From Bacteroidales bacterium (GTDB lineage Bacteria; Bacteroidota; Bacteroidia; Bacteroidales; P3), in the NCBI GenBank assembly GCA_009783885.1, contig WRCN01000007.1, forward strand, positions 16,953-80,952: a DNA stretch of 64,000 nt. The letters are read 5' to 3'. A program made the position numbers and the translations under genes. The notes under the pieces are model-generated. The model had not been told where the DNA came from. It did no database searches and was given only the letters and a program-made list of their open reading frames with translations. This document shows, one piece after another, positions 314 to 53,651 of this stretch; position 1 is the stretch's first letter, and each line of letters begins with the position of its first letter.

Positions 314-390
314 GTCATGTTGAGCGAAGCGAAGCGAAGTCGAAACATCCCCTTGAAGTAGGGGGATTCCTCGACTTCGCTCGGAATGAC
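314..390. repeat. GAGCG-core hairpin repeat, two units in opposite orientation
   Basis: GTCATGTT-GAGCGAAGC(GAAGC)GAAGTCGA-AACATCCCC, loop TTGAAGTA, then GGGGGATTCC-TCGACTTCGCTC-GGAATGAC. It lies inside an uninterrupted minus-strand reading frame. Confidence 0.85.
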
Positions 391-967
391 GTGTATAATC
401 GTACCCCAACATTTGATTAGCCTTCTCTATCTCCCCTGCTCGTATGAGTTTCCGAATTTCCGACGAACTCACTTTTTCTCCATTTTCAAAATGTTGCTCG
501 GGAAAAATTTCAGCTTCAAAGCCGTGTTTATTCGCCAATTCCTGAAGTTTTTCGAAATTTCCCTTGCGATTATTTCCGAAATTATGATTAAATCCAACTA
601 AAAACAATTTCGGATTAAGATTTTTTACAATAAATTCCTCAACAAAACCAGTATACGACAACGTTGCAAACTCTTTGGTAAACGGCAATACAACCAAATA
701 ATCAATCCCGATGTCTCGAAATAATTCTATTTTTTCGTCTAATGTTGTCAGTAGAAACACGTCTTTTCCGTAGCGTTCAGGCGCAATCACTTCGCAAGGA
801 TGTTTGTCGAATGTAACCACAACCGACTTTGCAGAAAACTCTTTCGCTTTGCTTTTCAACTCATCCAAAATCAAGCGATGGGCGATGTGGACGCCGTCGA
901 AAATGCCAACTGTGACGACAGTTGGCTGTTCTTTTGGAAAATTTTGTATGTTTGTGATTATTTGCAT
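391..967 (-). CDS. ribF: FAD synthetase (FMN adenylyltransferase) domain protein: RibF N-terminal domain only, no riboflavin-kinase domain and no stop codon before the downstream repeat
   Basis: Own translation from ATG at 967: MQIITNIQNFPKEQPTVVTVGIFDGVHIAHRLILDEL...VSSSEIRKLIRAGEIEKANQMLGYDYT. It carries the GxFDGxHxxH and SSxIR motifs of the RibF adenylyltransferase domain. About 186 aa end at the usual domain boundary, then the frame reads straight into the repeat at 314-390. Confidence 0.65.
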
Positions 968-975
968 CTCTCTCC

Positions 976-1039
976 GTCATTCCGAGCGCAGTCGAGGAAT
1001 CCCCCTTGCATGGGATGTCTCGGCTACGCTCGACATGAC
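976..1039. repeat. GAGCG-core hairpin repeat pair
   Basis: GTCATTCC-GAGCGCAGTCGA-GGAATCCCCC, loop TTGCAT, then GGGATGTC-TCGGCTACGCTC-GACATGAC. It sits between the ribF-like start (967) and the stop of the upstream gene (1045). Confidence 0.85.
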
Positions 1040-1044
1040 GCGTT

Positions 1045-2907
1045 TTATAAATTAAACGTTGCTCCCACAATAAAATTCGTCCTAAACGACCTGTAATTAT
1101 ACCAATGATAATACTTTTGGTTCAGTATATTATTCAAATCCAAAAACGCTGACCAACGTCTGTTGAAGCGGTATTCGGCGCCTATGCTCCAATCTACGAT
1201 GGGTTTGAAGGTTTCGAGTTTTGGAGTAATGAGTTCTATTTTAGAAAAATCATGATATTTTGTTCCTGCAAAAACATACAATTGTGTTTTCAAAATAATT
1301 TTGTTCTGCATGTTGTATCGTGCCATTAAATTGGCTTCATACTTAGGTTTGTAAAGAATTTCATCATCATAAAAATTTGCACGGGCCATTGCAGAAATAG
1401 CAATTTTTTCATCCAAATGATAGTTCAAATTGGCTTGCAGTTGGAAACAGTTGATATCTTGGTACGTTGAATTGAAAAATGGTGTTGGTACAGGCGTTGG
1501 AAGACCAATATAAATATTGTCATTAGGTAAGTAGTATGTCCTCCAAGCATCAAAACTCAACAAACGTTTGTATGAAACAAGTTTTCCTTTCATTGAAAAA
1601 TCAATGGCTTTGCTCAATGCTGTATTTAAGCCTAAATAATATTCACGGTGCAGTTGGGTTATATATGGCCCAAAATATAAAAGAAAAACTTCTTTGCCTA
1701 AAAGAGCAAATGGGTTGGCTTCAACAATTTTTTGAGAAGTCAAATATTCTGCATTGCCGTCTAATCCAAATTCTATAGCGAACAAATTATCAATCAAATT
1801 AAATTTGGCATGAAGTGTTGGTACTAATTGGAAGTCCGTTTTTGTCTTTATCTCGTACATATCATTGGCAACTTCATCAAACGTATTAATTCTTAAACCT
1901 AAAGAAAAATCATGTCCTGAAAAACGTAATTTTCCATAAGGGTGAAATTTTAACATTTTGGATCCATTGTCAATTTGATATGTTTTACCATCAAGTGGGT
2001 CATCAGGAAGCACTAAAACCAAGTCTTTACTACTATTTGTTTTGTGCCAACCGAAAGAAACATCAAGACCGATGGTGGTTTGATTAAAGATAGAATGTCT
2101 AAAATCGAATGTTTGATGTGTGTTTCCATCAAATCCTACTGACCATTCTTTTGTGTTGAAATAATCGGGTTGAAAATACCATATTGGATTTCTTATGTCG
2201 AAATTAGGTTGAAACATATTTATTGCTAAATTTCCACTGTAGCCAAAACTGTTTGGCTCTGTGTTATTGTCAGAAAATCCAATATTTCCTCCAACGTTGT
2301 TGTAAATTAGTTTATATTGTTCATCTTTCAAAAAACGTTCATCATTGGTAACGCTGTCATAGTGCAAAAACGGAACATCCGCCCCATACGCCGAATACCG
2401 CTGTCTATCATAATAAAAATCCGTAGAAACAATGGCTTTTTTGCCAAAATAACTACCAAACAATTTAATCAAATTCTCCGAATTATCAAACGGCACTTCG
2501 TGATTTTTAAACGTACCTCTCGACGAATGGTGTTTGAGATGTGTACCATATTGCCATTGTGCTGAACGCTCGCTACCGTAGAATAATTCACCGTAAGCCG
2601 TTGCATAATTACCAAAACCCCCACGCACATGAAGCGGCGAAAGTTTGGTCAACGGTTCGCCTGCAACTCTTGCAGGTCTGATGTGATCCATGCCGAACGA
2701 GGTTACCACCTTACGGCTCAAAATGTCGAAACGCGCTTCGCGAGGTCTCAAAACGCTGTCAATCGTTTGCGGCATAACATTGATTTTATGCGCATCAAGC
2801 ACCGTTGGTTGAAATGGAGCGATAACTGTTACCTGTTCGTTTTGAACTTGGGGAAACAGGGTTCCTGCGAGGAGAAGTAATGTGATTGTGATTTGTATTT
2901 TTTTCAT
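1045..2907 (-). CDS. Outer-membrane beta-barrel protein (putative porin-like), function uncertain
   Basis: 620-aa ORF with signal peptide MKKIQITITLLLLAGTLFPQ. It is rich in aromatic/Gly/Asn residues in an alternating beta-strand pattern through to the C-terminus (FIVGATFNL). It lies directly downstream of the TPR gene on the same strand. Confidence 0.55.
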   Translation of the reverse strand: MKKIQITITLLLLAGTLFPQVQNEQVTVIAPFQPTVLDAHKINVMPQTIDSVLRPREARFDILSRKVVTSFGMDHIRPARVAGEPLTKLSPLHVRGGFGNYATAYGELFYGSERSAQWQYGTHLKHHSSRGTFKNHEVPFDNSENLIKLFGSYFGKKAIVSTDFYYDRQRYSAYGADVPFLHYDSVTNDERFLKDEQYKLIYNNVGGNIGFSDNNTEPNSFGYSGNLAINMFQPNFDIRNPIWYFQPDYFNTKEWSVGFDGNTHQTFDFRHSIFNQTTIGLDVSFGWHKTNSSKDLVLVLPDDPLDGKTYQIDNGSKMLKFHPYGKLRFSGHDFSLGLRINTFDEVANDMYEIKTKTDFQLVPTLHAKFNLIDNLFAIEFGLDGNAEYLTSQKIVEANPFALLGKEVFLLYFGPYITQLHREYYLGLNTALSKAIDFSMKGKLVSYKRLLSFDAWRTYYLPNDNIYIGLPTPVPTPFFNSTYQDINCFQLQANLNYHLDEKIAISAMARANFYDDEILYKPKYEANLMARYNMQNKIILKTQLYVFAGTKYHDFSKIELITPKLETFKPIVDWSIGAEYRFNRRWSAFLDLNNILNQKYYHWYNYRSFRTNFIVGATFNL

Positions 2908-2936
2908 TTTTTCTAGTTTTAAAAGGTTAAAGGTGC

Positions 2937-3001
2937 GTGGTCGTTTCGACTCCGCTCAACGACCACAATAAGGTTGGTGGCTGAGCGGAGCCGAAGCCAC
3001 C
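2937..3001. repeat. GAGCG-core hairpin repeat pair
   Basis: GTGGTCGTT-TCGACTCCGCTC-AACGACCAC, then GGTGGCT-GAGCGGAGCCGA-AGCCACC. It abuts the stop codon of the TPR gene (3003). Confidence 0.85.
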
Positions 3002-3002
3002 T

Positions 3003-6000
3003 CTAAAATTCATCGGGCAACATAATCAAGTCTTCCTCCCCGGCTTCTTCGGCGCGTCTTCTATCTTCTTCAGCGCGGAGTTGAGCTTCTTTGTCCAAAA
3101 TAGTTTGGATTCCGAGTCTAGCGGTTTCTATGATACCATCATTTTCGATATCATAGTTATCAATGATACTTTGAAACGTTTGTTTGGCTTGCAAAAAGTT
3201 ACCGCGTTCCGCATAAATCGCGCCCCAAAGCAAATACGTTTTTGCCAAAAAATAATCGCTCGAAGGGGCTTCGTTGATAAATTCAAAAATTTTCTTTTCT
3301 GCTAATTCGAATTCTTTCTTGGTAAACAACTCTTCGATTTCGAAGTAGCGTGCTTGTGCCACAAACTCGCTGTTTTTTGAATTTCGCAATTTAGCAAAGG
3401 TTTCTCTTGCTAACTCATTTTGTCCCAAACGCTGTGCCGACGTGGCGATGGCGTGATTGGCTTCATCTCGAATATCATCGGTCAATTTACCCAATTTCAA
3501 CACATTTTGAGCGGCTGCCAAAATTCGATCATCGTTACCCAAGCGCATTTCGCAACGCATGATGGCGATGATAGCCATGTTGATATTTGCTGTATTTTCG
3601 GAAAATTCCGACAGTAAGGTGTAAAGTTTCAAAGCCTGTTGAAAATCTTGCAAATCGAACGAAATCTTAGCCGCGCTGATGATTGAGCGTTCTGTAAAAT
3701 TTGATTCCGGGAGAGAAACCACCGTTAGAAAATGTTTTCGTGCTTGCAGCACATTACCGCTTCGCATTTCGCAATCTGCTAAATAATACATGGCTTCAGT
3801 GATAAATATACCATTCGGAAATCGCTGTAAATAACTCTCCAAAGAGGGTTTCGCACCATGACAATCGTTTTCCAAATAGCGGTTTTCGGCTGCAGAGAAA
3901 GCAATCGAATCTTGCGTATTTTCATGGATATTTGCCCCAATTTTTCTTACATAAGCAAAGAAATCATCGGTTCTGTTAATTGCCACATAAATATTTCGTA
4001 AGCTCATCAAAGCCTCTTTGGCCTCTGTGGTTCCTGGATGATCGGCAATCACTTTTTCAAACATCGCAATCGCTTCATTATTTTTTCCGATGTTGTAATA
4101 AATCAAACCTTGTTTGAGTAAAGCCATTTTTCCGAAACTTGATCGCCCGTGCTGAGTTGAGAGTAACCTGTAGTATTCGAGAGCTTTTGCGTTGTTGTCC
4201 AAAATCAGGTATGTACTTGCTAATTCGTTGATGGCTTTGGGTATCAACGGCGAATTTTCATAGTTTTTGAGTATGGAAAGTAAGGTTGTGATTGCGGCAT
4301 CATATCGTCCTAAAATGCGCAAACTGATTGCCTTTTGAAGCATTGCATAATCTCTATCGGCTTGGTTCAATTGTATAGCCGATTCATAATTTTGCAACGC
4401 TTCATTGAGTCTTCTTTGCATAAAAAACGCATCGCCCAAACGCAAGAACGCATCATTCAAAATCGCTTGGTTCAACTGATTTTTGTGCTGAATAACTATT
4501 GTAAAGTATTTGGCTGCTTGCGCATAATTTCTCATTTGGAAATTGGCATATCCTGCCCCATAAGCGGCAAATGGGAATTCCGGAAACGTTTCGAAAAGCG
4601 ATGAAAAAAGAGCTCTTTCATAATTTTCAAGGGCATCCTCAAATCGCCCCATGCGGTAATACGCCTCGCCTTTCCAATAAAATGCCAATAGCGTCAACTT
4701 CTCGTCGTAACTGCTTTGAATCGCTTCATCAAACATTCTTTGCGCTTCAATAAATTTCATTTCATTGAACAATTCAACCCCACGATTAAAAGCAATTCGT
4801 TGCGCGGCTTCGAGCAAACGTGGGTCTTTGCGCTTTACGTTAGCAATGGAAGCATAAGCATCTCTGTAATTTCTCGTAGTAGTGTACATCGCTACCAAAT
4901 AGCCGTAAATTTCGTCCGCATATCTTGAATCGGGATATTTTTCTAAATAGGATTGCATGGCTTTTAGCGCTTCGTTGTATGGACTTGGCGAAAGTTTATA
5001 CGACAGTTTTGCATAATTGTAAAATGCGTCTTCTTGTATACGTTCGTCAATATCGATTTTAGAAGCATCAAAAAACGCAGCTTGCGCAAATTTATATTGG
5101 CCAAGTTTCACATAACAATCGCCCAAATGGTAGAGAGCGCTTTGTTTCATCAAGTCATTTTCTTCAGAAGTATTCACTACTTTTTGGAAATAAATCACAG
5201 CCGTATCACATTTTCCAAGACTGTAATACACAAATCCCATAATGTAATTATCTTCTCTAGAAGGCGTTACCGCAGATTTTTCAAAATACAACTGCAAAAA
5301 TGGCAAAGCTTCAGCATACCTGTTTTCATTGTAAAACGCTTCGCCTATTAATCGTGAAATCTCAACAGCCCTGCGAGGTGTAGCCGTTTCAAGTAAGGCA
5401 GGACCTTGTGCAATAATTAAATCATTTTTGCCTTGTCTGTAAAAAATTTGCATCATGTAGAATGGCACAATTGAACCGAATGTTTCATCATTTTGCAATT
5501 TTTCAAACTCAATCAAAGCCGATTGGAAGTTGCCTTCGGTATAGAGAATATAAGCATAAAAATACGTTGCTAAAGACGTGTAGCGGCTTTCTCTGTTTCT
5601 TATTTCTGCAAAATGAGGTTTCGCCTTTGACATTTGGTTTCTCATAAAATAGGAGTACCCTTTTTTGAAATGATATTCTATTTGCTGTTTTTCAGGCAAA
5701 TCCCTCACATCAATTTGATCGTAAACTTCGATGGCTCTCTCATAGTCTTTTTCCACATAAAACACGTTTGCCAATTCTAACATAACTTCTGGAATTCGCG
5801 TACTTTCCGGATAATCCAAAATAAACTGTTGCAAATTTTTCACCGCATCACGATGTGATAACCTTGCCGACGAAACGGCAGCATAAAATGCGGCATTCAT
5901 CGCCATCATCGGGTCAGTTTTTCTTGTTTCTGCAACTACCGAACGCATCAACTCGTTGGCAGATGCAAATTTTTCGAGATTAAAAAGTTCTACACCCATG

Positions 6001-6107: not shown

Positions 6108-6303
6108 AAAAACAGTTTTTTCAGAATGTAAAATTACAAAAAAATAGCCTTGGATTGAAGACTTTTAGGCTTAACTTATTAACAAGTGAGATTTAATAAG
6201 TCTGAACCTTGATTTCAATAAGATTTTCAAGATTTATAAGATTTTTTTTCTCAATCTTGATAATCTTTTTAATCTTGAAATAATCGTGGTTCAAATTTTT
6301 TTG

Positions 6304-6311
6304 TATCTTTG
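6304..6311 (+). promoter_or_regulatory. Bacteroidota -7 promoter box TATCTTTG (TAnnTTTG)
   Basis: TTGTATCTTTGCAAAAAAA lies 25 nt upstream of the dcp ATG at 6336. Confidence 0.55.
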
Positions 6312-6335
6312 CAAAAAAATAAATCAATAAAAAAT

Positions 6336-8435: not shown

Positions 8436-8622
8436 GGTTCAAGATTAGAATAGCTAACAGATGTCTCGCTTCGCTCGACATGACGAGTAACAATTTTAAA
8501 GCATCGGTGGCTACGCCACCGATGCTTTCCTCTTATCCCCACATATGATAAGTTGTCATTCAGAGCGAAGCATACGAAGTATGCGAAGTCGTGGAATCTG
8601 TTAGCTATTCTAATCTTGAACC
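8436..8622. repeat. 187-bp long imperfect palindrome with perfect 27-bp terminal inverted repeats (MITE-like composite)
   Basis: GGTTCAAGATTAGAATAGCTAACAGAT (8436-8462) is the exact reverse complement of 8596-8622. The interior carries two GAGCG-core units (8460-8484, 8555-8598) and a central terminator hairpin. Confidence 0.8.
8501..8525 (+). terminator. Rho-independent terminator-like hairpin after dcp
   Basis: GCATCGGTGGC-TAC-GCCACCGATGC forms an 11-bp stem, flanked by AAA on the 5' side and TTTCC on the 3' side. Confidence 0.65.
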
Positions 8623-12591: not shown

Positions 12592-12644
12592 GGGGATTCC
12601 TCGACGGAGTTTATCCTGAGCATAGTCGAAGGGCTCGGAATGAC
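12592..12644. repeat. GAGCG-core unit with a second unit nested in its core
   Basis: GGGGATTCC-TCGAC[ggagtttat CCT-GAGCATAGTCGA-AGG g]CTC-GGAATGAC. It begins 4 nt after the U32 stop. Confidence 0.75.
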
Positions 12645-12652
12645 GGGTATAA

Positions 12653-18123: not shown

Positions 18124-18141
18124 GATTGTTTTTATTAAGTC

Positions 18142-18238
18142 GTCACTCCGAGCGCAGTCGAGGAACCGAAGCACGAAGTGCGAGTTCGGCGAAGCCGATC
18201 CCTTCGCTATGGGATGTTTCGACTGCGCTTGACATGAC
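18142..18238. repeat. GAGCG-core hairpin composite (two units plus small internal hairpins)
   Basis: GTCACTCC-GAGCGCAGTCGA-GGAAC, spacer, then GGGATGTT-TCGACTGCGCTT-GACATGAC. It forms the last 32 or so codons and the stop of ptrB. Confidence 0.85.
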
Positions 18239-20287
18239 GTGATTATTCAATGTTTTTAATAGAAAAGTGTATTCAAGTGCAGTTTCTTTCAATGCTTCAA
18301 ATCGTCCGGAAGCACCACCATGCCCGAAGTTCATCTCTGTCTTGAATAGTAATAGATTGTTGTCCGTTTTCGTTGCTCGCAGTTTGGCAACCCATTTTGC
18401 AGGCTCCCAATATTGCACTTGCGAATCATGATAACCCGTTGTTATCAACATATTCGGATAGTTTTGCGGTTTTACATTATCGTAAGGCGAATAAGACAAC
18501 ATATAATCGAAAAATTCTTTTTCGTTGGGATTTCCCCATTCTTCATATTCACCTGTTGTTAGCGGAATATCTTCGTCGAGCATCGTTGTAACCACGTCTA
18601 CAAAAGGCACTTGCGCGATGAGTGTGTGAAACAAATCAGGTCGCATGTTTGCTACTACACCAATCAGCAATCCGCCTGCGCTCCCACCCATTGCTGCAAG
18701 TTTTTGAGGTGATGTAAAATTCTCTTGTATCAACATTTCTGCACAAGCGATAAAGTCTAAAAACGTGTTTTTTTTCTTTAAGAGTTTTGCATTTTCATAC
18801 CATTTTCTGCCCATTTCCTCGCCACCTCGAATGTGCGCAATCGCATACACGAAACCTCTATCTAAGAGGCTCAATCGTGCCGAACTGAAATTCGGGTCAA
18901 TTGAAATTCCATACGAACCATAACCATAAAGCAAGGTTGGATTTTGTCCGTTTTTTTCCACACCCTTTCTGTAAACAATCGAAATAGGTACGCGTTCACC
19001 ATCGTGAGAAATTGCCCACAAACGTTTGCTTTCGTAATTTTCAGGTTTGAAATTTTTATCTAAAACCACCTGCTGTTTCAGCATCACGATTTCGCGAGTT
19101 TTCAGATTGTATTCGTACGAAGTGCGTGGCGTTGTCATAGATGTATAACCGTATCTCAACGTCGTGGCATAAAAATCCGGATTGTAGCCAATACCTGTAT
19201 TATAGACTTCTTCGGGAAATTCAAGATAGTAATCCTCGCCGTTTTTCAAACTGATAATTCGAATATGATTGAGCGCATTTTTTCGCTCCTCTAAAACCAA
19301 ATAATCGGAAAAAACTTCAAAATCCTCCAATTTCACATCATCACGATGCGGAATGATGTCTTTCCAATTCTCTTTGTTTGTCAAACGTTCTGGCGTTTTC
19401 ATCAATTTGAAATTGGTGGCTTGCCAATTCGTCATCACAAAAAAATGATCTTCAAAGTGCTCGATAGAATATTCCAAATCTTTTTCTCTGCGATGAAATA
19501 TTTGAAATTCTGCTTCGGGCTGATTAGCAGGAATAATACGATATTCAGACGATGTAGAACTCCCTGAAAACAAAAAAACGTAGCTTTCCGATTTCGTTCG
19601 TCCCACGCCAACATTAAATTTTGCATCTTTCTCAAAAAAGATTTCTTGTTCGTTTTTCGGATTTCCAAGCGTATATCTTATCACTCGGCAATCACGCAAT
19701 TGGCGGTTTTGCTTAACATAAAACAAGGTTTTGTTATCTGCAGTCCAAGTAAAATTTCCTGAAGTTTTTTCAATTTTTTCGTTCAAGATTTCACCGGTTT
19801 CTAAATTTTTAAACCAAATATCATAAATCCGACGACTTACAAAATCCACTGCAAACGCCAACATTTTATTATCGTCGCTAATCGCTAATTCGCTCACAGC
19901 ACAGAACGCGTGACCTTCGGCAAGTTTATTCACATCCAAAATTATTTCCTCTAAATTTTCCAATGTTTGGAATTTTCGGCAATAAATCGGGTATTCTTTG
20001 CCTGTTTCGTAACGTGTGTAATACCAATATGCTTTGCGAAAAAACGGAACGCTTTGGTCGTCCTCTTTGATACGCGATTTGATTTCATCAAACAGTTGTT
20101 TTTGTAAGCCTTCCGTATCTTTCATTATCGCATCGCCATAAGCATTTTCGGCATTCAAATACCCCAAAACATCCGGCGTATCACGCTGATTCAGCCAAAA
20201 ATAATCGTCTTGACGAACAACATCGTGCATAGTCAACACTTTCGGATCTTTCTTTGCAATTGGCGCAGTATTTTGCGAATTTATCAT
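18143..20287 (-). CDS. ptrB: Oligopeptidase B / prolyl oligopeptidase family S9A serine protease with a repeat-encoded C-terminal tail
   Basis: N-terminal beta-propeller region (DDYFWLNQRD) and catalytic Ser motif GGSAGGLL. The C-terminal 32 aa, HVMSSAVETSHSEGIGFAELALRASVPRLRSE, come from the repeat. Confidence 0.8.
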   Translation of the reverse strand: MINSQNTAPIAKKDPKVLTMHDVVRQDDYFWLNQRDTPDVLGYLNAENAYGDAIMKDTEGLQKQLFDEIKSRIKEDDQSVPFFRKAYWYYTRYETGKEYPIYCRKFQTLENLEEIILDVNKLAEGHAFCAVSELAISDDNKMLAFAVDFVSRRIYDIWFKNLETGEILNEKIEKTSGNFTWTADNKTLFYVKQNRQLRDCRVIRYTLGNPKNEQEIFFEKDAKFNVGVGRTKSESYVFLFSGSSTSSEYRIIPANQPEAEFQIFHRREKDLEYSIEHFEDHFFVMTNWQATNFKLMKTPERLTNKENWKDIIPHRDDVKLEDFEVFSDYLVLEERKNALNHIRIISLKNGEDYYLEFPEEVYNTGIGYNPDFYATTLRYGYTSMTTPRTSYEYNLKTREIVMLKQQVVLDKNFKPENYESKRLWAISHDGERVPISIVYRKGVEKNGQNPTLLYGYGSYGISIDPNFSSARLSLLDRGFVYAIAHIRGGEEMGRKWYENAKLLKKKNTFLDFIACAEMLIQENFTSPQKLAAMGGSAGGLLIGVVANMRPDLFHTLIAQVPFVDVVTTMLDEDIPLTTGEYEEWGNPNEKEFFDYMLSYSPYDNVKPQNYPNMLITTGYHDSQVQYWEPAKWVAKLRATKTDNNLLLFKTEMNFGHGGASGRFEALKETALEYTFLLKTLNNHVMSSAVETSHSEGIGFAELALRASVPRLRSE

Positions 20288-24771: not shown

Positions 24772-25296
24772 TTAGGTGTAGCTTTTAAATGTTCCATCCA
24801 TAAAAAACACGATAATTCTTTCGATATCAGAATTTTGATTAGATTCCCGTTTGCTTGCAGGCGGGGCTTTTTCGTGCTGCTCAATTGAAGTAGATGGTGG
24901 CGCGGACTTGTAGTCTGTGCCGTTCCCTTCGACTCCGCTCAGGGATCGGTCGTTGATCGGAGCCGAAACGAGCGTCCGCACCACTGGTAAGTCTGTATCA
25001 ACAGTTTCACTATTCCATTCAAATTCAGGCGTTTTAAAGTCTAATTTAGGCTCTTGTTGTACCGATAGGGTGGGGGCGGATTTTTCAAGGCTAAACATCT
25101 GGTTTTTGCCTGTAAGCAGCCATTCGGCATTGATTTCGGGGAAACGATTGAGGGTTTTCATCACAAAATCCAAACTTGGATTGTTTCGGCGAGCCAATAT
25201 ATGAGACATACTTGAGCGTTGAATTCCGATCGCATCTGCGAACTGGGTTGGGGTTAAATTTTGAGTTTTTAAAATTAACTCGATTCGGTTGATCAT
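24772..25296 (-). CDS. XRE/Cro-type helix-turn-helix transcriptional regulator with a repeat-encoded internal segment
   Basis: N-terminal HTH: MINRIELILKTQNLTPTQFADAIGIQRSSMSHILARRNNPSLDFVMKTLNRFPEINAEWLLTGK. The middle segment ...RTLVSAPINDRSLSGVEGNGTDYKSAP... is encoded by the repeat at 24896-24984. Confidence 0.75.
   Translation of the reverse strand: MINRIELILKTQNLTPTQFADAIGIQRSSMSHILARRNNPSLDFVMKTLNRFPEINAEWLLTGKNQMFSLEKSAPTLSVQQEPKLDFKTPEFEWNSETVDTDLPVVRTLVSAPINDRSLSGVEGNGTDYKSAPPSTSIEQHEKAPPASKRESNQNSDIERIIVFFMDGTFKSYT
24896..24984. repeat. GAGCG-core two-unit element with outer stem, inside the HTH gene
   Basis: Outer arms GGTGGCGCGGAC / GTCCGCACCAC. Inner units are GTTCCC-TTCGACTCCGCTCA-GGGA and TCGTT-GATCGGAGCCGA-AACGA. 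GTAGTCTG at 24910. Confidence 0.8.
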
Positions 25297-25690: not shown

Positions 25691-25810
25691 TATGAATTTA
25701 CGAAAAATAGAATCAGATAAATTTGAGATTTGACCGGCTTTTCTTTGGAAAAATAACAACGAGTTCAATGGAAAAAAAATCGTTGGTTAGAGGGCTGATT
25801 TTGCGTTTGC

Positions 25811-25870
25811 CATTCCGAACGAAGTGAGGAATCTGTTAGCAAGTAGATTTCTAACTTCGTTCGGAATGAC
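25811..25870. repeat. Diverged hairpin repeat pair (core GAACGAAGTGA)
   Basis: CATTCC-GAACGAAGTGA-GGAATC tgttagcaagta GATTTC-TAACTTCGTTC-GGAATGAC. It shares GGAATCTGTTAGC with the element at 8594. Confidence 0.75.
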
Positions 25871-30000: not shown

Positions 30001-30024
30001 GAAATTAATTAACCGTAAAAGGAA

Positions 30025-30049
30025 ATGTCTCGACTATGCTCGACATGAC
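30025..30049. repeat. Single GAGCG-core unit (reverse orientation)
   Basis: ATGTC-TCGACTATGCTC-GACATGAC. Confidence 0.8.
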
Positions 30050-30061
30050 GACCTTATTCGC

Positions 30062-37626: not shown

Positions 37627-38862
37627 ATGCTGACAACAATTCTACTCATATCACTGCTTGTTTTAACCATCCTTAACATTTGGATTTCACTCTCTCAAAA
37701 ACCCAAAGACCACACGGAGGACATCAAAACCACATTCATAAAGTTCGATACCAACCTTTCGCGTATAGACCCGCTCATGCGCGAAGAATTTGATCGAAGC
37801 CGAAAAGAGCTGCAAAACAATCGCGAAGAACTGAATAAATCCTTAAAAGATAATCGCGAAGAGCAAAGCAAATCCATCGAAAAAATTCGCGAAACCATTG
37901 AAATCAAACTGAAATCCATTCAAGAGGACAACAACAAACGGTTGGAGGAAATGCGCAAAACCGTTAATGAAAAACTGCAAGAAACGGTTGAAAAACGCTT
38001 CAACGAATCATTCAAACTCATCAGCGAACGCTTGGAACAAGTACACAAAGGACTCGGTGAAATGCAAACGCTGGCTTCGGGTGTAGGCGATTTGAAAAAA
38101 GTTTTAACCAATGTAAAAACTCGCGGAAATCTTGGAGAAATACAACTTGGCGCAATTCTAGAACAAATTCTTTCGCCCGAACAATACGAACAAAACGCTG
38201 CCGTGAAAAAAGGAAGTTTGGAACGCGTGGAATACGTGGTTAAACTTCCGGATAAAAATACAGAAGATCAATTGGTGCTTTTACCAATCGATTCAAAATT
38301 TCCAACCGAAGACTATCAAAGGCTTTTAGAGGCTTATGAACATTCTAAAGATGTGGATGTTATATCCAAACAATTCGAAAACTCAGTCAAAAAGAATGCC
38401 AAAGATATTCGCGATAAATACATTAATCCGCCAATTACAACGGATTTCGCGATTATGTTTGTGCCTACAGAAGGTTTGTATGCTGAGATTTTACGACGAA
38501 CCGGATTGTTTGAAACACTACAAAGAGACTACAAAATTACGGTTGTTGGGCCAACAAATTTAGTCGCATTTTTGAGCAGTTTGCAAATGGGATTTCGAAC
38601 CTTAGCTATTGAAAAACAAACGAGCAAAGTGTGGGAAACCTTAGGCACTGTAAAAAATGAATTCGGAAAGTTTGGCGATGTATTAGAAAAAACCAAAAAG
38701 AAATTGCAAGAAGCCACAAACGTGATTGATGATGCTTCTGTGCGTTCGCGTGCGATTGAGCGTAGTTTGCGAACTGTGCAGAAACTACCCTCCGAACAAA
38801 CAACGGCATTATTGGACGAGGTAATTGACATTGAAATAGAGGAGGAAGATGGCCAAAGGTAA
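37627..38862 (+). CDS. rmuC: DNA recombination protein RmuC
   Basis: N-terminal TM helix, then a long coiled coil, then a C-terminal RmuC nuclease-like region (VEYVVKLPD ... LPIDSKFP ... FAIMFVPTEGLY). Confidence 0.85.
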   Translation: MLTTILLISLLVLTILNIWISLSQKPKDHTEDIKTTFIKFDTNLSRIDPLMREEFDRSRKELQNNREELNKSLKDNREEQSKSIEKIRETIEIKLKSIQEDNNKRLEEMRKTVNEKLQETVEKRFNESFKLISERLEQVHKGLGEMQTLASGVGDLKKVLTNVKTRGNLGEIQLGAILEQILSPEQYEQNAAVKKGSLERVEYVVKLPDKNTEDQLVLLPIDSKFPTEDYQRLLEAYEHSKDVDVISKQFENSVKKNAKDIRDKYINPPITTDFAIMFVPTEGLYAEILRRTGLFETLQRDYKITVVGPTNLVAFLSSLQMGFRTLAIEKQTSKVWETLGTVKNEFGKFGDVLEKTKKKLQEATNVIDDASVRSRAIERSLRTVQKLPSEQTTALLDEVIDIEIEEEDGQR

Positions 38863-38911: not shown

Positions 38912-38936
38912 GATCCCTCACTTCGTTCGGGATGAC
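38912..38936. repeat. Single diverged hairpin unit (core TCACTTCGTTC)
   Basis: GATCCC-TCACTTCGTTC-GGGATGAC. It supplies the spurious upstream ATG of the pepD ORF. Confidence 0.7.
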
Positions 38937-41617: not shown

Positions 41618-42931
41618 ATGTCTCTCGCAGGCAAAAATATCATTGTAGGAATTAGCGGAGGGATTGCAGCTTACAAAACTCTTTCGCTTATTCGGCTTTT
41701 CGTGAAAAACGGGGCTAATGTAAAAGTTGTTGTAACACCGAATGCCCTGAATTTTGTAACAAAATTATCATTGCAAACGCTGTCGAAAAATAAAATTTAC
41801 GACAGCGTTTTTTCTGAAATCAACGACTATTCGACCGAACATATTGCTTTGACTGATTGGGCTGATATGATGGTTGTTGCACCTGCCACAGCAAATATCA
41901 TCGGGAAATTCGCCACCGGTATTGCAGATGATGCCCTATCAACAACATTTTTAGCATTCGACAAACCTGTTTTTATTGCACCTGCAATGAACAACAAAAT
42001 GTACGAAAATCCGGCTGTTCAACGCAATTTACAAACGTTAATTGAGTGTGGCATTCATACGATTGAATCCCCAATCGGCGAATTGGCATGTGGTTGCGAA
42101 GGCAAAGGCAGAATGGAAGAACCTGAGGTGATTTTTGAGCGTATCACCGGTTTTTTTTTGACCTTAGAACATGCTGACCATGCTCCTACAAAACCGTTTT
42201 GTGGCAAAAAGGTTTTGGTAACGGCAGGTCCGACTTACGAAGTCATAGACCCCGTTCGATTTATTGGTAATCATTCATCAGGATTGATGGGGATTTGCAT
42301 TGCCGATGAGCTTGCTGATCGCGGTGCAGAAGTGATTTTAGTTTGTGGACCAAGTGTGATCAAATCGAAAAATTCTTCGGTTAAACGTATGGATGTTGTT
42401 TCTGCAAAAGACATGTTTGACGTTTGTAAACAACATTTCGAAACTGCTGATATTACCGTGTGTTCAGCAGCTGTTGCGGATTATACCCCAAAACAAATTG
42501 CATCACAAAAAATCAAGAAAAAAGACAATGATTTAGTCCTGAAACTCACCAAAACTCCTGATATTTTAGGTTATTTAGGTGAACATAAAACTTCTGAACA
42601 ATTTTTAGTTGGTTTCGCATTAGAAACGGAAAACGAATTTCAAAACGCCGAAACCAAGCTAAAATCAAAGCATTTGGATATGCTCGTTTTAAATTCTTTG
42701 AATGATGAAGGCGCAGGTTTTGGGCATATCACAAACAAAATTTCTATGCTTTTTAAACAAGGCACGGGTTGCGCTTCGACTCCGCTCAGCGCACGGACAT
42801 TGAGCGGAGCCGAAATGTCCGCGCCCACGATTAAACATTTTGAACTAAAAAATAAGATGGATGTGGCGAAGGATATTGTTGATGAAATTTTCAAAGCCGT
42901 CATGTCGAGCGCAGTCGAGACATCCCCTTAA
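41618..42931 (+). CDS. coaBC: Bifunctional phosphopantothenoylcysteine decarboxylase / phosphopantothenate-cysteine ligase, with repeat-encoded insert and tail
   Basis: CoaC motifs GISGGIAAYK and PAMNxxM. CoaB motifs VTAGPTxExIDPVRFIxNxSSG and AAVADY. The insert TGCASTPLSARTLSGAEMSAP and the tail VMSSAVETSP are encoded by repeats. Confidence 0.9.
   Translation: MSLAGKNIIVGISGGIAAYKTLSLIRLFVKNGANVKVVVTPNALNFVTKLSLQTLSKNKIYDSVFSEINDYSTEHIALTDWADMMVVAPATANIIGKFATGIADDALSTTFLAFDKPVFIAPAMNNKMYENPAVQRNLQTLIECGIHTIESPIGELACGCEGKGRMEEPEVIFERITGFFLTLEHADHAPTKPFCGKKVLVTAGPTYEVIDPVRFIGNHSSGLMGICIADELADRGAEVILVCGPSVIKSKNSSVKRMDVVSAKDMFDVCKQHFETADITVCSAAVADYTPKQIASQKIKKKDNDLVLKLTKTPDILGYLGEHKTSEQFLVGFALETENEFQNAETKLKSKHLDMLVLNSLNDEGAGFGHITNKISMLFKQGTGCASTPLSARTLSGAEMSAPTIKHFELKNKMDVAKDIVDEIFKAVMSSAVETSP
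42761..42826. repeat. GAGCG-core two-unit element inserted in frame in coaBC
   Basis: TGCGC-TTCGACTCCGCTCA-GCGCA, then GGACAT-TGAGCGGAGCCGAA-ATGTCC. Confidence 0.85.
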
Positions 42932-42964
42932 GCAGGGGGATTCCTCGACTACGCTCCGAATGAC
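42899..42964. repeat. GAGCG-core hairpin pair spanning the coaBC stop codon
   Basis: GTCATGTC-GAGCGCAGTCGA-GACATCCCC, loop TTAAGCA (the TAA stop lies in the loop), then GGGGGATTCC-TCGACTACGCTC-CGAATGAC. Confidence 0.85.
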
Positions 42965-43011
42965 GGACAAACAACTAAACAATTAAGCGACTAAACAACT
43001 AAACAAAACAT

Positions 43012-44493: not shown

Positions 44494-44498
44494 TTGTT

Positions 44499-45759: not shown

Positions 45760-45767
45760 TATCTTTG
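45760..45767 (+). promoter_or_regulatory. -7 promoter box TATCTTTG
   Basis: TTTTTTTCGTATCTTTGTAAATT lies 26 nt upstream of the ATG at 45794. Confidence 0.55.
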
Positions 45768-45793
45768 TAAATTTATATAACTTGATTTTGAAA

Positions 45794-49664: not shown

Positions 49665-49689
49665 TAATGTAATCGACGGCAATTTGTTG

Positions 49690-49717
49690 GCAGGGCGTAT
49701 ATGTAATACGCCCCTGC
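49690..49717. terminator. REP-like hairpin (GCAG-headed variant on minus strand) between convergent genes
   Basis: GCAGGGCGTAT-ATGTA-ATACGCCCCTGC. Confidence 0.55.
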
Positions 49718-49722
49718 ACTAT

Positions 49723-50145
49723 TTATTCATCGTGCATTTCCCCATCATCAATAATAGGACTAATCCCTAACAAATCCCTAACATTCAAAACATCACGAAC
49801 CACAAAGGCTTGCGGATAGCTCGCTTTCAAATTTTCTAAAGCCGCAGAGGCTTCAAGACGCGTGCGAAAATTTCCGACATTAACTCTAAAATACGGTTCC
49901 TCAAAACTTACATAACTTTGTATATTCGGAAAGCGCTCTGAAAAAGCGGTTTGAACAGCCATTGCTCCGCTTCGCGAATGATTCCCCGATTGGGAAAAAA
50001 TGTTGATCCGAAACCCGTTAACCGGAGTAATTTTATTGTATTCGATATGTTTATCAACCAACGTATTTACACGAAAATCATTCACAAAAGTTACAGGTTC
50101 TTCAACCAAACCAAGCATTGACAAAAAGCAAATAAACGTTATCAT
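49723..50145 (-). CDS. SPOR (peptidoglycan-binding) domain protein
   Basis: C-terminal region of about 75 aa: GFRINIFSQSG...AMAVQTAFSERFP...FRVNVGNFRTRLEASAALENLKASYPQAFVV. It has a 4-nt overlap with the usp gene. Confidence 0.7.
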   Translation of the reverse strand: MITFICFLSMLGLVEEPVTFVNDFRVNTLVDKHIEYNKITPVNGFRINIFSQSGNHSRSGAMAVQTAFSERFPNIQSYVSFEEPYFRVNVGNFRTRLEASAALENLKASYPQAFVVRDVLNVRDLLGISPIIDDGEMHDE

Positions 50146-50996
50146 GAGAAAGAAGTTGTTGCTAACACTTTCGGAGTGATAGATAAAACAGGAATTTCAG
50201 ACGAGCCAATCATTTGTTCGGCATACGTTCCCAAAAGAAAACTCCAAGCCGAACTTTCTTGTTCGGTTGTGATCGAAATCAAATCGGCATCCACTGATTC
50301 AGCATAGGCAATAGCGGTTTTCGTGATATTTTCGGCTTCTCTAAAAACAGTGGTAAACTCAACTTTTTCTTCGGAAATAAATTTCTCGACTTGCGCCACA
50401 TAATTGTCTACTTTGCGCTTAATCGAAGATAATTTCGAAGAATACACGCCCAAAATATGAATCTCGGCTTTTGCCATTCTCGCTAATTTACAAGTGAACG
50501 GCACTTTTTGACGAGTGTCCGTAGAACTGTCAATCGGCAATACAAAAATGTGGCTCGACGAACGAAAACGATAATTCGGACGAACAGTGATCACGGGAGA
50601 TTTGGAATACATCACAATACGATAGGCATTACTGCCAATATAGTGCTCTTCGAAACCTGAAGCGCCGTGTGTACCACAAACAATCAAGTCCACATCGTCA
50701 TACTTGGCTTGGTTAACAACCTCATTATGAACCTTTCCTTCACGAATGCGGTAACTCATTTTACTACCATCCTTCAGTTTCGGAAAATAGTCTGCAATAA
50801 TTTGCTCCAATCTAGAAACGGCTGCCTTTTCAAGAGAAGTTTCCTCGGTTTCCATAACTAAAATATCCTTGCCACGAATGCTGTTCACCCATATCAAGAC
50901 CACTTCAACAGCAACGTCTTTTACGTTCGCAACCACATAATCCAACGCTTTTAAAGAATTGTGGGAAAAATCCGTAGGGATCAATATTTTTCTCAT
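50142..50996 (-). CDS. Universal stress protein, tandem UspA domains
   Basis: Two Usp-like halves: MRKILIPTDFS ... DLIVCGTHGASG, and ... ILGV ... DLISITT. Confidence 0.8.
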   Translation of the reverse strand: MRKILIPTDFSHNSLKALDYVVANVKDVAVEVVLIWVNSIRGKDILVMETEETSLEKAAVSRLEQIIADYFPKLKDGSKMSYRIREGKVHNEVVNQAKYDDVDLIVCGTHGASGFEEHYIGSNAYRIVMYSKSPVITVRPNYRFRSSSHIFVLPIDSSTDTRQKVPFTCKLARMAKAEIHILGVYSSKLSSIKRKVDNYVAQVEKFISEEKVEFTTVFREAENITKTAIAYAESVDADLISITTEQESSAWSFLLGTYAEQMIGSSEIPVLSITPKVLATTSFS

Positions 50997-51020
50997 GATG
51001 TTAGAACTTAGAATTTTTCA

Positions 51021-51028
51021 CAAAGGTA
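51021..51028 (-). promoter_or_regulatory. -7 promoter box (TACCTTTG on minus strand)
   Basis: The minus strand reads AAAAAAAGTTTGTACCTTTGTGAAAAATTC, upstream of usp. Confidence 0.5.
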
Positions 51029-51061
51029 CAAACTTTTTTTGGAATTATCAACATTTTTTTG

Positions 51062-51069
51062 TATTTTTG
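51062..51069 (+). promoter_or_regulatory. -7 promoter box TATTTTTG
   Basis: TTTTTTTGTATTTTTGTGAAAC lies 14 nt upstream of the ruvB ATG. Confidence 0.5.
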
Positions 51070-51083
51070 TGAAACTTTTTTAA

Positions 51084-52109
51084 ATGAACGAAAATTTAGA
51101 CCCTACAAACATCCGTTTTTCCAATGTGGAAAAAGAGGTGGAACGCGCTTTGCGACCGCTTAGCTTCTCTGATTTTAGAGGTCAAGCACAGGTTTTGGAC
51201 AATCTGCAAGTGTTCGTTTTGGCAGCCAAACAGCGGGGTGAAGCTTTAGATCACGTTTTACTTCACGGTCCACCCGGGTTGGGAAAAACAACCCTGTCGT
51301 ATATCATTTCCAACGAACTCGAAGTGGGAATTAAAACCACATCCGGTCCGGTTTTGGATAAACCCGGAGAATTGGCGGGTTTGCTCACCAGTTTGGAACC
51401 GAATGATGTGCTGTTTATTGATGAAATTCACCGTTTAAGTCCTGTTGTGGAAGAGTATCTGTATTCGGCGATGGAAGATTATAAAATTGACATCCTGATT
51501 GAATCCGGACCGAATGCACGAAGTGTGCAAATTTCGCTCAATCCATTTACATTGATTGGCGCCACCACACGATCCGGATTGCTCACGGCACCGCTACGTT
51601 CACGCTTCGGCATCAATTCCAGATTGGAATATTACGACGCACAAACGTTGATGCAAATCATCAAACGCTCGGCAAAATTGTTGAATGTGACGATTGACGA
51701 TTTTGCAGCACACGAAATTGCTCGCCGCAGTCGTGGAACCCCGCGAATTGCGAACTTGCTGTTGCGACGTGTGCGCGATTTTGCACAAATTCGAGGCAAC
51801 GGAAAGGTAGACGTGGACATTTCGCAAATCGCCCTAACCGCATTGAATGTAGATAAAAACGGTTTGGATGAAATGGATAATCGCATTTTGACCACGATTA
51901 TCGACAAATTTAAGGGTGGCCCTGTTGGATTAACTACCATTGCCACAGCAGTTAGTGAAGAAGCCGGAACAATTGAAGAAGTATACGAGCCGTTTCTAAT
52001 CAAAGAGGGTTATTTGATGCGGACGCCACGCGGGCGCGAAGTAACCCTGAAAGCCTATCAGCACTTGGGAAAAATCAAACAAGTTACCAAACAAGATTCG
52101 TTGTTTTAG
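51084..52109 (+). CDS. ruvB: Holliday junction branch migration DNA helicase RuvB
   Basis: Walker [10 protein letters not shown], Walker B LFIDEIH, and the sensor and winged-helix regions are all present. 341 aa. Confidence 0.95.
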
Positions 52110-52112
52110 GAT

Positions 52113-52164
52113 GTAGGGACGAGGTATGCTTCGACTATGCTCAGCAACCGTGCCTCACCTCTAC
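52113..52164. repeat. Chimeric element: GTAG/CTAC REP-like arms with a GAGCG-type core in the loop
   Basis: GTAGGGACGAGGTATGC-TTCGACTATGCTCA-GCAACCGTGCCTCACCTCTAC. Confidence 0.7.
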
Positions 52165-52180
52165 GTTTAATCGTATTATT

Positions 52181-52996
52181 ATGTATTTTGAACAAACGTC
52201 AAACATAAAAAAACACGCTTTGAATCTTGGTTTTTTTGCGTGTGGAGTAGCTAAATCGGAAGTTTTGAGCGATGACAAAATTCACTACGAAAACTATCTT
52301 CAACGTGGTGATCACGGTGAAATGAATTACCTGACCAATTATTTTGACAAACGTTTCAATCCTGCGTTAGTGTTGGAAAACACGAAATCGGTGATTGTAG
52401 TTTTGTGGGATTATTCAATGTATGACCCCAAAAAAACTCCTGAAGGAAAACTTGCGAAATACGCCTGTGGAGAGGATTACCACATTGTTATCAAATCTAA
52501 ACTTTTACAGTTAGAAAATGAAATTCACAAACTTTTTCCACAAGCCAACATGCGCTCATTTGTCGACGCATCGCCGGTTTTGGAAAAAACATGGGCTATC
52601 AAAGCAGGGGTGGGATTTCGAGGGAGAAATACATTATTGATCAATCCTACCATTGGCTCCTATTGCAATATTGGTGTAATTTTAACCGACCAAGAATTGG
52701 CTTACGATACACCGCTCGAAATCACGTGTGGCACGTGTTCTCGATGTTTGGAAAGTTGCCCGACAGGCGCATTGGCTCTCCCCTATCAACTGAATGCACG
52801 AAACTGTATTTCGTATTACAATGCCGAAAAAAAACGCGCTGCAACATTTGATTTGCATGGTTGGGCACAGGGGTGCGATGAATGTCAGATGTGTTGTCCA
52901 TGGAATATGGGTACGAGGTATGAGGTGGCGGGGTACGAGGTTTCCTCGAAGCACACCCCGCACCTCGAACCCCGTAACCCCGCACCAAATAACTAA
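52181..52996 (+). CDS. queG: tRNA epoxyqueuosine(34) reductase QueG, apparently short, with repeat-encoded C-terminus
   Basis: Two 4Fe-4S motifs, CGTCSRCLESCP and CDECQMCCPWN. The ORF ends about 30 codons after CPWN inside a GC-rich heptad palindrome (GTRYEVAGYEVSSKHTPHLEPRNPAPNN). Confidence 0.75.
   Translation: MYFEQTSNIKKHALNLGFFACGVAKSEVLSDDKIHYENYLQRGDHGEMNYLTNYFDKRFNPALVLENTKSVIVVLWDYSMYDPKKTPEGKLAKYACGEDYHIVIKSKLLQLENEIHKLFPQANMRSFVDASPVLEKTWAIKAGVGFRGRNTLLINPTIGSYCNIGVILTDQELAYDTPLEITCGTCSRCLESCPTGALALPYQLNARNCISYYNAEKKRAATFDLHGWAQGCDECQMCCPWNMGTRYEVAGYEVSSKHTPHLEPRNPAPNN
52908..52986. repeat. GC-rich 7-nt repeat palindrome
   Basis: GGGTACGA-GGTATGA-GGTGGCG-GGGTACGAGG TTT CCTCGAAGCACACCCCGCACCTCGAACCCCGTAACCCCGCACC. 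Confidence 0.7.
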
Positions 52997-53009
52997 ATTA
53001 GAATTCCAA

Positions 53010-53588
53010 ATGAAAATTATTATTATTGAAAAGAATAATCAGTTTCGCCTAATCCCCGATTCCGCGCTATTGCTGAAAAATAGACCATTGTTTTGCCCTG
53101 ATTATGTGCAGACATTACACGCAAAAATCGCATTGGTTGTAAAAATTAACCGCTTGGGCAAATATATTCAAGAAAAATTTGCACCAACATATTACGATGA
53201 AGTCGGTTTTGCTATTAATTTTTACGACAAAACTTGTTTAGATTCTCTTATTCAACAGGGTTTACCATGGGAACGTGCCACGTGTTTTGATGGCAGTTTT
53301 GCGCTGTCGGAATTTGTGGCTTCGACTTCGCTCAGTCACCGTGTGCAGGTGCGGACGTTGAGCGCAGTCGAAACGCCCGCGCCGATAGAAAAGAAACAAA
53401 CATTTGAAATCGTACAAACCATTCAAAAAATCCCTTCTATAATTTCAAAATTATCCACCTACATGACCTTGAAAATTGGGGATTATATTGCATTTGAAAT
53501 TAGTGAATTTCCCGAATCGATTGCGATTAATGATGTTTTGCGATTGTCGGTTGATGGTAAACAAATGGTAAATGTTGTTGTAAAGTAA
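53010..53588 (+). CDS. Fumarylacetoacetate-hydrolase (FAH) fold-like protein with divergent catalytic motifs and a repeat-encoded insert
   Basis: MKIIIIEKNN..., LLLKNRPLF and GLPWERATCFDGSFALSEF parallel the MKIICIGRNY, lFlKp and G.PWe.aK.FD blocks of small FAH proteins. The insert ASTSLSHRVQVRTLSAVETPAP comes from a repeat. Confidence 0.55.
   Translation: MKIIIIEKNNQFRLIPDSALLLKNRPLFCPDYVQTLHAKIALVVKINRLGKYIQEKFAPTYYDEVGFAINFYDKTCLDSLIQQGLPWERATCFDGSFALSEFVASTSLSHRVQVRTLSAVETPAPIEKKQTFEIVQTIQKIPSIISKLSTYMTLKIGDYIAFEISEFPESIAINDVLRLSVDGKQMVNVVVK
53316..53382. repeat. GAGCG-core two-unit element inserted in frame in the FAH-like gene
   Basis: GTGGC-TTCGACTTCGCTCA-GTCAC (one G-T pair in the stem), then GCGGACGTT-GAGCGCAGTCGA-AACGCCCGC. 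Confidence 0.85.
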
Positions 53589-53589
53589 A

Positions 53590-53651
53590 GTTCCCTTCGA
53601 CTCCGCTCAGGGAACAAGTAAATTTGGTCGTTGAGCGAAGTCGAAACGACC
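53590..53651. repeat. GAGCG-core hairpin pair between convergent genes (terminator candidate)
   Basis: GTTCCC-TTCGACTCCGCTCA-GGGAAC, then GGTCGTT-GAGCGAAGTCGA-AACGACC. Confidence 0.85.

Follow-up and report, generated by a model that had tools for sequence, protein, structure and literature searches.

The 64-kb stretch of Bacteroidales DNA analysed here, called the window (C7:16953-80952 of an assembly labelled G000, with contigs C1 and so on), carries a family of small hairpin repeats, in which a conserved 12-nt core, GAGCGNAGYCGA, is enclosed by short complementary arms. The exact core is present 15 times in the window, where shuffles lead one to expect 0.01 copies, and matches with up to two mismatches number 42, against 13.5 expected. 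Degenerate and one-mismatch copies were counted as units only if they stand in a hairpin context, which adds those at 332, 12618, 18219, 24955, 30030, 52131, 8460, 8563, 25811-25870 and 38912. Together with the exact copies they bring the total to about 25, in agreement with a preliminary description of the window, which had counted at least 25 units. A further one-mismatch core, at 37792, is without stems and is probably a chance match. The family extends beyond the window: a pattern search of the whole genome (2.05 Mb, 60 contigs) gives 252 exact cores.

Genome-wide, the repeats make up about 170 elements. Most are pairs with the cores in opposite orientation, as had been noticed in the window: 115 elements contain two cores, with 72 '-+' pairs and 34 '+-' pairs, and 49 are singletons. 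The '+-' pairs form family A, in which the cores are 36-39 nt apart in the arrangement cGTCAT-TCC-GAGCGyAGTCGA-GGA-ATCCCCTTGCTATGGGAT-GTC-TCGACTACGCTC-GAC-ATGACg, the consensus of one unit being cGTCAT-nnn-core-nnn'-ATCCCC. In the '-+' pairs of family B the cores are 26-40 nt apart, and two hairpins, GGTCGTT-core'-AACGACC and GGTGGCT-core-AGCCACC (spelled out, GGTGGCT-GAGCGGAGTCGA-AGCCACC), are adjacent in either order with an intervening spacer of 0-14 nt. Further family B stems are GTTCCCT/AGGGAAC and GCTCCCT/AGGGAGC, and an outer stem GGTRCGAG...CTCGYACC is frequent. With this additional inverted repeat, many B pairs (for example C29:5518, C18:12556 and C1:139675) could adopt a three-stem, cloverleaf-like fold of 80-90 nt. 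The minor family C is recognised by the frame GTAGGGGCGAGG...CCTCGCCCCTAC. The loops can be expanded, either by GCGAA repeats or by a nested small hairpin; tops enlarged by tandem GCGAA/GCGGA pentamers (GAGCGAAGCGAAGCGAAGTCGA) are found at 313-345 of the window, C1:50603, C6:78060 and C10:57564, a pattern that suggests slippage inside the loop. Whole units are also nested inside other units (12592-12645 of the window; C30:7784). One nested copy suggests, ambiguously, a CG duplication, target-site duplications being unresolvable with a nearest genome that is only 88% identical.

At the start of the window, a family A pair (313-391) lies inside an open reading frame (ORF) at 2..967(-). It consists of a CGTCAT-GTT-core arm with a GCGAA-expanded loop, a central ATCCCC..GGGGAT and a TCC-core'-GGA-ATGACG arm; the ORF runs in one frame from a ribF-like part through the pair into the frame of the next gene. 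The second A pair (974-1040), with a TCC arm and a GTC arm, is intergenic, between this ORF and that at 1045..2907(-). It is followed by an intergenic family B pair (2937-3001; GGTCGTT-core'-AACGACC, a spacer and GGTGGCT-core-AGCCACC) that is also found in the related genome G002. The coordinates given in the preliminary description are right overall and need small corrections in three places. Two of its entries, 8460-8484 and 8555-8598, are the two arms of a single 185-bp palindromic composite (8437-8621), made up of an A half-unit with a GTC arm, a GC-rich central hairpin and a second A half-unit, in which the loop is expanded (GAGCGAAGCATACGAAGTATGCGAAGTCG); the G002 sequence at this position is unrelated. 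The element listed as 12592-12644 ends at 12645 and is a composite as well, with one unit (TTATCCT-GAGCATAGTCGA-AGGGCTC) interrupting the core of another, which is of A type; G002 has a simple A unit here. Finally, 52130-52143 is only the core of a longer, GTAG...CTAC-framed unit of family C (52113-52164, minus strand), in which the outer stem GTAGGGACGAGG../..CCTCACCTCTAC surrounds TGCT-TCGACTATGCTC-AGCA; this unit is missing from G002.

The family A pair at 18141-18239 has a long, partly palindromic middle and overlaps the 3' end of ORF 18143..20287(-). The orthologous region of G002 (contig C155; 4136-6128 of the locus compared) holds a 2-kb insert, which contains a gene for a 153-aa RAYT-like Y1 transposase with GTCCCGTAGGGAC-type palindromes on both sides and a 408-aa ORF with a C-terminal HNH-like CxxC...H motif, whereas G000 has only the hairpin pair. 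A diverged A-like pair (25809-25870) shows the core variant GAACGAAGTGA, and two single units lie on the minus strand: an intergenic A-type unit with one mismatch in the core (30024-30050; ATGTC-TCGACTATGCTC-GACAT-GACG) and a diverged A-like unit (38912-38936; GATCCC-TCACTTCGTTC-GGGATGAC). The family B pair at 53590-53651, with GTTCCCT and GGTCGTT stems, is intergenic and missing from G002. Other B pairs are in frame within genes. One (24919-24973), with the same two stems and a mismatch in its second core, is in ORF 24772..25296(-), at a site where G002 has a different, shorter segment. Another (53316-53380) is in ORF 52794..53588(+), where G002 has an unrelated segment six residues shorter. 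The third (42762-42826) contributes about 22 codons (...ASTPLSARTLSGAEMSAP...) to coaBC. At the 3' end of the same gene, a family A pair (42897-42966) provides the last codons and the stop. None of the four genus mates has either coaBC element; at the site of the A pair, an ordinary terminator hairpin is present in three of them. With the coaBC elements, 52113-52164 and 53590-53651 present here and missing from related genomes, the copies are insertion-polymorphic between species of the genus.

The compensatory stem changes around a conserved core, first noticed in the window, stand far above controls. Counting outward from the core, flank positions 1-5 are Watson-Crick paired in 94, 93, 94, 84 and 70% of the units, compared with 54, 50, 44, 33 and 39% when the 3' flanks are permuted among units. 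When 95 distinct units, drawn partly from our genome and partly from other phyla, are aligned, 75% of the helix cells are paired, as opposed to 42-46% with the partner slid by one to three columns. The covariation score is 0.69 versus about 0.2, and none of 500 shuffles reaches the observed value. The four inner stem pairs of this alignment are paired in 89-95%, with three to six pair types each. Stems are 4-8 bp long, and in the consensus a Watson-Crick stem of 5 bp surrounds the 12 nt. In nearest-neighbour folding, which has no terms for the G·A/GNA top proposed below, a single unit becomes an open 12-nt loop and a pair becomes one long hairpin with the two cores pairing together. Evolution nevertheless keeps the local stem of each unit, although a long single hairpin is the thermodynamic optimum of the pair; the two stems within a pair differ at compensated positions.

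Sheared G·A pairs and GNA mini-hairpins, for example d(GCGAAGC), are known folds, and by analogy the 12 nt of the top are probably not an open loop. Written as Y-GAG-CGNAGY-CGA-R, the top could stack through G1·A12, A2·G11 and G3-C10, while C4-G8 would close G5-N6-A7 and Y9 would be bulged out. Alternative tops found beside related nuclease genes, GAGCCTGTCGA and GAGTTTATCGA, preserve exactly GAG...CGA. Recognition through the loop, as suggested in the preliminary description, is plausible.

A one-genome-per-species collection was scanned for the pair pattern TCGACTNCGCTC-N14-28-GAGCGNAGTCGA, which gave at least 118 stretches. Taxa among the matches listed are Flavobacteriia, Bacteroidales, Chitinophaga, Ignavibacteria, Pseudanabaena, Leptolyngbya, Nostoc, Leucothrix, Moraxellaceae, Scalindua, Geobacter, Spirochaetota, Daviesbacteria and others; in the matches listed from other taxa every core is enclosed by complementary stems of its own, which vary from taxon to taxon. 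Exact cores number 631 in a cyanobacterium, 458 and 345 in two Pseudanabaena genomes, 250 in a Moraxellaceae genome, 236 in Leucothrix and 166 in Scalindua, with 0-3 occurrences of a reversed control word in the copy-rich genomes. Closer to our genome, four genus mates contain 73, 103, 41 and 53 exact cores and one other genus of the family 55, most other relatives having 0-6. A phage origin was considered and rejected, the pair pattern being present in only 10 stretches of 2.9 million viral contigs. A literature search by the core sequences and the tops GAGCCTGTCGA and GAGCTTGTCGA returned only chance primer matches.

When the ORFs of 118 such foreign loci were clustered, one small family proved recurrent beside the repeats, that of a GIY-YIG nuclease. 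The 64 kb of the window contain no gene for such a nuclease; elsewhere in the genome there are five small ORFs of this kind (on C2, C3, C18, C23 and C31), encoding 81-101 aa, which in a profile search match PF01541 over their full length and have no other domain. Units adjoin four of the five genes, and the fifth, on C18, if an expanded loop is accepted. Subfamily 1 (C2 and C3) is flanked by B-type units: C2:103633-103935 has three units upstream and two downstream, while at C3:41679-41981 the upstream unit is degenerate and the downstream side holds a pair. Each gene of subfamily 2 (C18, C23 and C31) is preceded by an A-type composite, the end of which is about 25 nt away from the ATG. The composite at 8437-8621 of the window is built like this upstream region, but is gene-less.

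Homologues of the C2 protein are encoded in 13 of 14 core-rich genomes of other phyla. At 11 loci, exact cores are located on both sides of the nuclease gene, inverted and within about 150 nt, mostly less than 80 nt: two in Aequorivita, one in Flagellimonas, two in Tenacibaculum, and one each in Flavobacterium agri, a Bacteroidota metagenome-assembled genome (MAG) and Scalindua, with three in cyanobacteria. From the genome-wide core densities, the chance of such a two-sided bracket is 1e-4 to 1e-7 per locus. The bracket of the Flavobacteriia reads TGTCAGGTC-core-GAC..ATG..stop..GTC-core'-GACCTGACA, which is an A-type pair with the gene in its middle; the gene-bearing form is thus a nuclease gene of about 300 bp between two inverted units. 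In the related genome G004 the nuclease gene is likewise flanked by hairpin repeats. In Aequorivita vladivostokensis (G039, C1:566700-568250), two nuclease copies, 70% identical, are about 1 kb apart, with a tandem array of at least seven hairpin pairs, with a period of about 94 nt, between and around them.

The tops of the flanking hairpins vary together with the nuclease. The orthologue of the C2 and C3 nucleases at G001:C24:25202-25643 is 87% identical and is accompanied by four hairpins with the same stems (GGTGGCT, GTTCCCT) and the top GAGCCTGTCGA, of which there are 45 copies in G001, 13 in G004 and two in G000. At G027:C503 the flanks of a GIY-YIG gene consist of GCCTTCGATAAACTCAGGCTGACA arrays together with GGTCAGTCT-GAGTTTATCGA-AGACTGACC hairpins, the top GAGTTTATCGA representing a third type that retains GAG...TCGA. 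A nuclease copy of G023 has NTS-like flanks, ATTCCTGC-TTTC-GCAGGAAT. Judged from these comparisons, the repeat type, or dialect, tracks the nuclease copy, with a change of dialect inside one genus.

The closest described system is that of the Ssn nucleases, a family with which site-specific nucleases acting on single-stranded DNA were presented for the first time in 2025 (Chenal et al., Nat Commun 2025, PMC11893778). SsnA, from Neisseria meningitidis, has 94 aa and a GIY-YIG domain as its single domain (cd10448). Its hairpin repeat, NTS (CGTCATTCCCGCGMAVGCGGGAATCYRG), is bound if it is single-stranded DNA and in no other form, the cut falling a few nucleotides upstream of it, and RNA is not bound; repeats called SRMs are found beside 71% of the ssn genes, Ssn proteins are encoded in 81% of genomes with more than 200 SRMs, and the NTS-ssnA-NTS arrangement resembles an insertion sequence, according to the authors (PMC11893778). 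The system described here is similar in its single-domain GIY-YIG protein of about 95 aa, in the bracketing of the gene by inverted hairpins and in the presence of hundreds of gene-less copies. Family A also has the NTS frame CGTC-AT...AT-C, including ATTCC/GGAAT (then CC) and a central GNAG, but has GAGC/TCGA where NTS has CGC/GCG. We consider it likely that small single-domain GIY-YIG nucleases of the Ssn type have these units as their cognate hairpin repeats, in an SRM-ssn-SRM system of the kind known since 2025 from Neisseria and further bacteria. Compared by sequence, the system appears as a variant form of it, in which the hairpin top and not the stem is the conserved part. The dedicated enzyme foreseen in the preliminary description is then the best explanation for the units, in the form of the small GIY-YIG nuclease whose genes they bracket. 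Two canonical NTS-like units, at C8:67956 and C14:21526 (CGTCATTCCCGCGAAGGCGGGAATCCCC, CGTCATTCCCCGTGCAGACGGGGAATCCCC), coexist in the genome with the GAGCG-top family.

Several observations weigh against this assignment. Units are so dense in our genome that 16% of all genes have a core no more than 150 nt from one end, and for this reason the significance of the adjacency to the nuclease genes within the genome itself is only moderate, about 1e-4. Among the relatives with at least 20 cores, the nuclease is present in G000, G001, G004 and G023; at E<=1e-5 it was not found in G002 (103 cores), G003 (41), G014 (55) and G022 (24), all of them fragmented MAGs of 190-600 contigs. The Leucothrix MAG G033, with 236 cores, gave no match to the subfamily 1 nuclease. 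The nearest solved structures of the nucleases are the UPF0213 proteins 1ZG2 and 1YWL. The published SRM motif, HGTCWYN(0-2)YYVSBRHN(0-5)WNVSBRGN(0-2)RNCYNB, matches the genome three times, compared with three to seven times in shuffles, and none of the matches holds the core. In NTS, the 8-bp stem is fixed and its sequence matters, while the 4-nt loop is dispensable (PMC11893778); in our units the stems vary and the 12-nt top is constant, the reverse arrangement, so recognition must differ from the SsnA case. Two features that are important for SsnA, the CGTC head and the C that follows the palindrome, are missing from family B. A further difference is that 40% of the B pairs are intragenic, compared with 2% of NTS, and the subfamily 1 proteins are about equally distant from a GIY-YIG protein flanked by NTS-like repeats (39% identity) and from BH0048 (36%).

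The enzyme proposed in the preliminary description was a transposase of the IS200/IS605 type (Y1, RAYT), which mobilises repetitive extragenic palindromes (REPs) and their pairs (REPINs). There are points of likeness: REPs are small palindromes in inverted pairs, the two stem variants recall the Y and Z REPs of bacterial interspersed mosaic elements (BIMEs), the location is intergenic, and one enzyme gene is bracketed by its own repeats (Nunvar 2010; Bertels and Rainey 2011, PMC3116915). Our units are mostly in spacers between tandem or convergent genes and depleted in divergent ones, the frame of family C is GTAG...CTAC, and the genus mates have one to seven Y1 genes. However, no Y1_Tnp domain is encoded in our genome, which is 98% complete and the most core-rich of its genus, and the genome with 631 cores has no Y1 gene either. 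None of the 26 Y1 loci in relatives is flanked by units, 24 being without a core and two having a single core 0.4-1 kb away. In other phyla, 17 Y1 loci from six copy-rich genomes are all without a core. The RAYT gene of G002 is flanked by a different REP, GTCCCGTAGGGAC. The bracketed enzyme is of the GIY-YIG and not of the HUH/Y1 class, and the GTAG head is missing in families A and B. Mobilisation by a RAYT is, on this evidence, very improbable, and the proposed identity of the enzyme had to be abandoned. Multi-copy protein families were also inspected as transposase candidates and rejected; those inspected are surface proteins, integrases and type IX secretion system proteins, and are unassociated with units.

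Another class of repeats to which family A bears a resemblance is that of the CGTC-tagged REPs, which are marked by a CGTC head, a stem beginning with two A-T pairs and a short CC(A) tail, occur as head-to-head pairs and include Neisseria dRS3 and the elements RPE-4 and RPE-6 of Rickettsia (Di Nocera et al. 2013, PMC3733652). The reported hosts belong to the Proteobacteria, Chlorobi, Bacteroidetes, Spirochaetes and Thermotogae, with intragenic copies that include RPE-4 and RPE-6 (PMC3733652). Family A shares the head, the first two A-T pairs and the CC tail, with 34 '+-' head-to-head pairs, while family B does not; intragenic copies and the lack of a known transposase are further points in common. 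The published stems are 8-9 bp long with loops of 4-5 nt, in contrast to the 5-bp stem around 12 nt found here, and the two could be reconciled only by treating the G·A/A·G and G-C pairs proposed for the core as part of the stem. In the part of the 2013 survey that was available, the top GAGCGNAGTCGA is not mentioned (PMC3733652).

The same survey concluded that the CGTC-tagged REPs lack a dedicated transposase (PMC3733652), and this conclusion favours an explanation in which the hairpins are mobile, but the GIY-YIG gene is a mere passenger or has flanks that are a preferred landing site, the spread being due to host replication and repair (hairpin-primed copying, gene conversion) or to some other enzyme. 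Several copy-rich genomes are without a GIY-YIG match, and units do land inside units (12592-12645; C30:7784), so that repeat-rich flanks attract repeats. On the other hand, the bracket is tight and symmetric, with one inverted unit per side (mostly less than about 80 nt away, up to about 150 nt) even in genomes with few cores. A different nuclease copy goes with a different repeat dialect, and in vitro, proteins related to this one cleave repeats of just this kind (PMC11893778). With these points taken together, we regard a passenger role of the gene as unlikely.

Density per kb of spacer is about 1.1 between tandem genes, about 1.0 between convergent genes and 0.4 between divergent genes, a distribution that would also suit host-selected RNA hairpins, such as terminators, stabilisers of mRNA 3' ends or a protein-binding RNA motif, in place of an element acting at the DNA level. 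Some copies take the place of an ordinary terminator, as at the 3' end of coaBC, and tandem G·A and GNA motifs are stable in RNA too. Against this, single units and A pairs have no orientation bias relative to the flanking genes, and about 30 pairs are within coding frames. Only eight of 42 intergenic B pairs have a T-rich 3' flank, which together with the missing orientation bias makes a reading as intrinsic terminators weak. With Rfam models at gathering thresholds, the single match in the window is a tRNA, and no unit is matched. Neither the bracketing of a nuclease gene across phyla nor the lack of RNA binding by SsnA (PMC11893778) fits RNA hairpins, and we think it quite unlikely that they account for the family. 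The units more likely act as DNA than as RNA, because SsnA acts on single-stranded DNA only (PMC11893778) and the units have no transcription-orientation bias.

If the units are indeed the sites of an Ssn-type nuclease, they would fold locally whenever the DNA becomes single-stranded, during replication, repair, uptake or transfer. By analogy with SsnA, the nuclease would bind the folded unit and nick the single strand nearby. Recognition would proceed via the conserved top, with any stem of at least 4-5 bp sufficient to hold it in place, and the nicks may drive the copying of pairs to new sites. The scattered A ('+-') and B ('-+') pairs look like brackets without the gene, related to the gene-bearing form as miniature inverted-repeat transposable elements (MITEs) are to an insertion sequence. 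We tentatively go one step further, to a proposal that is possible and somewhat doubtful: that the GIY-YIG nuclease of about 95 aa itself mobilises the repeats. On this view the bracketed gene would represent an autonomous transposon of minimal size, with a chemistry foreign to the recognised transposase classes, and its non-autonomous derivatives would be the A and B pairs. What is read would be the structured 12-nt top (tandem G·A plus GNA), which is the same in Bacteroidota, cyanobacteria, Planctomycetota and Gammaproteobacteria; the stems would drift, and the dialects GAGCCTGTCGA and GAGTTTATCGA would arise with nuclease variants.

The combination of a conserved top with free stems suggests a recognition mode other than that of SsnA, namely structure-specific reading of a G·A/GNA module, which, if true, would be easy to re-target. 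The potential of Ssn proteins as tools depends on knowing many enzyme-site pairs. The published SRM search motif misses the hairpin class described here, although genomes from at least six phyla hold it in hundreds of copies, and the catalogue of such pairs is probably much larger than reported.

Insertion into genes is common in our genome. Inside crude ORFs there are 110 of the 252 exact cores, 69 of these more than 100 nt from either ORF end, and 29 of the 72 B pairs are intragenic. Gene-landed copies would survive only if the frame stays open, resulting in inserted peptides of about 20 residues; the element writes such peptides into about 30 genes of a 2-Mb genome, coaBC included. Ogata and co-workers reportedly described, in 2000, Rickettsia palindromic elements (RPE) inserted in frame in many protein-coding genes, RPE-1 being said to measure 100-150 bp and the host to be an obligate intracellular alphaproteobacterium. 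Compared by description only, our units are alike in being palindromic repeats that are in frame and add short peptides, and they offer a clean, non-rickettsial case of protein insertion driven by repeats. They also call for caution in gene calling, as ORFs fuse or extend through units. The reading frames are unequally used: 45 and 44 cores are in the frame S-T-P-L ... L-S-G-V-E and 14 and 22 in the frame F-D-S-A-Q ... E-R-S-R; the third reading frame of the units contains TGA. In an FAH-like gene and an XRE gene, comparison within the genus reveals that the element stands in the place of a short variable segment.

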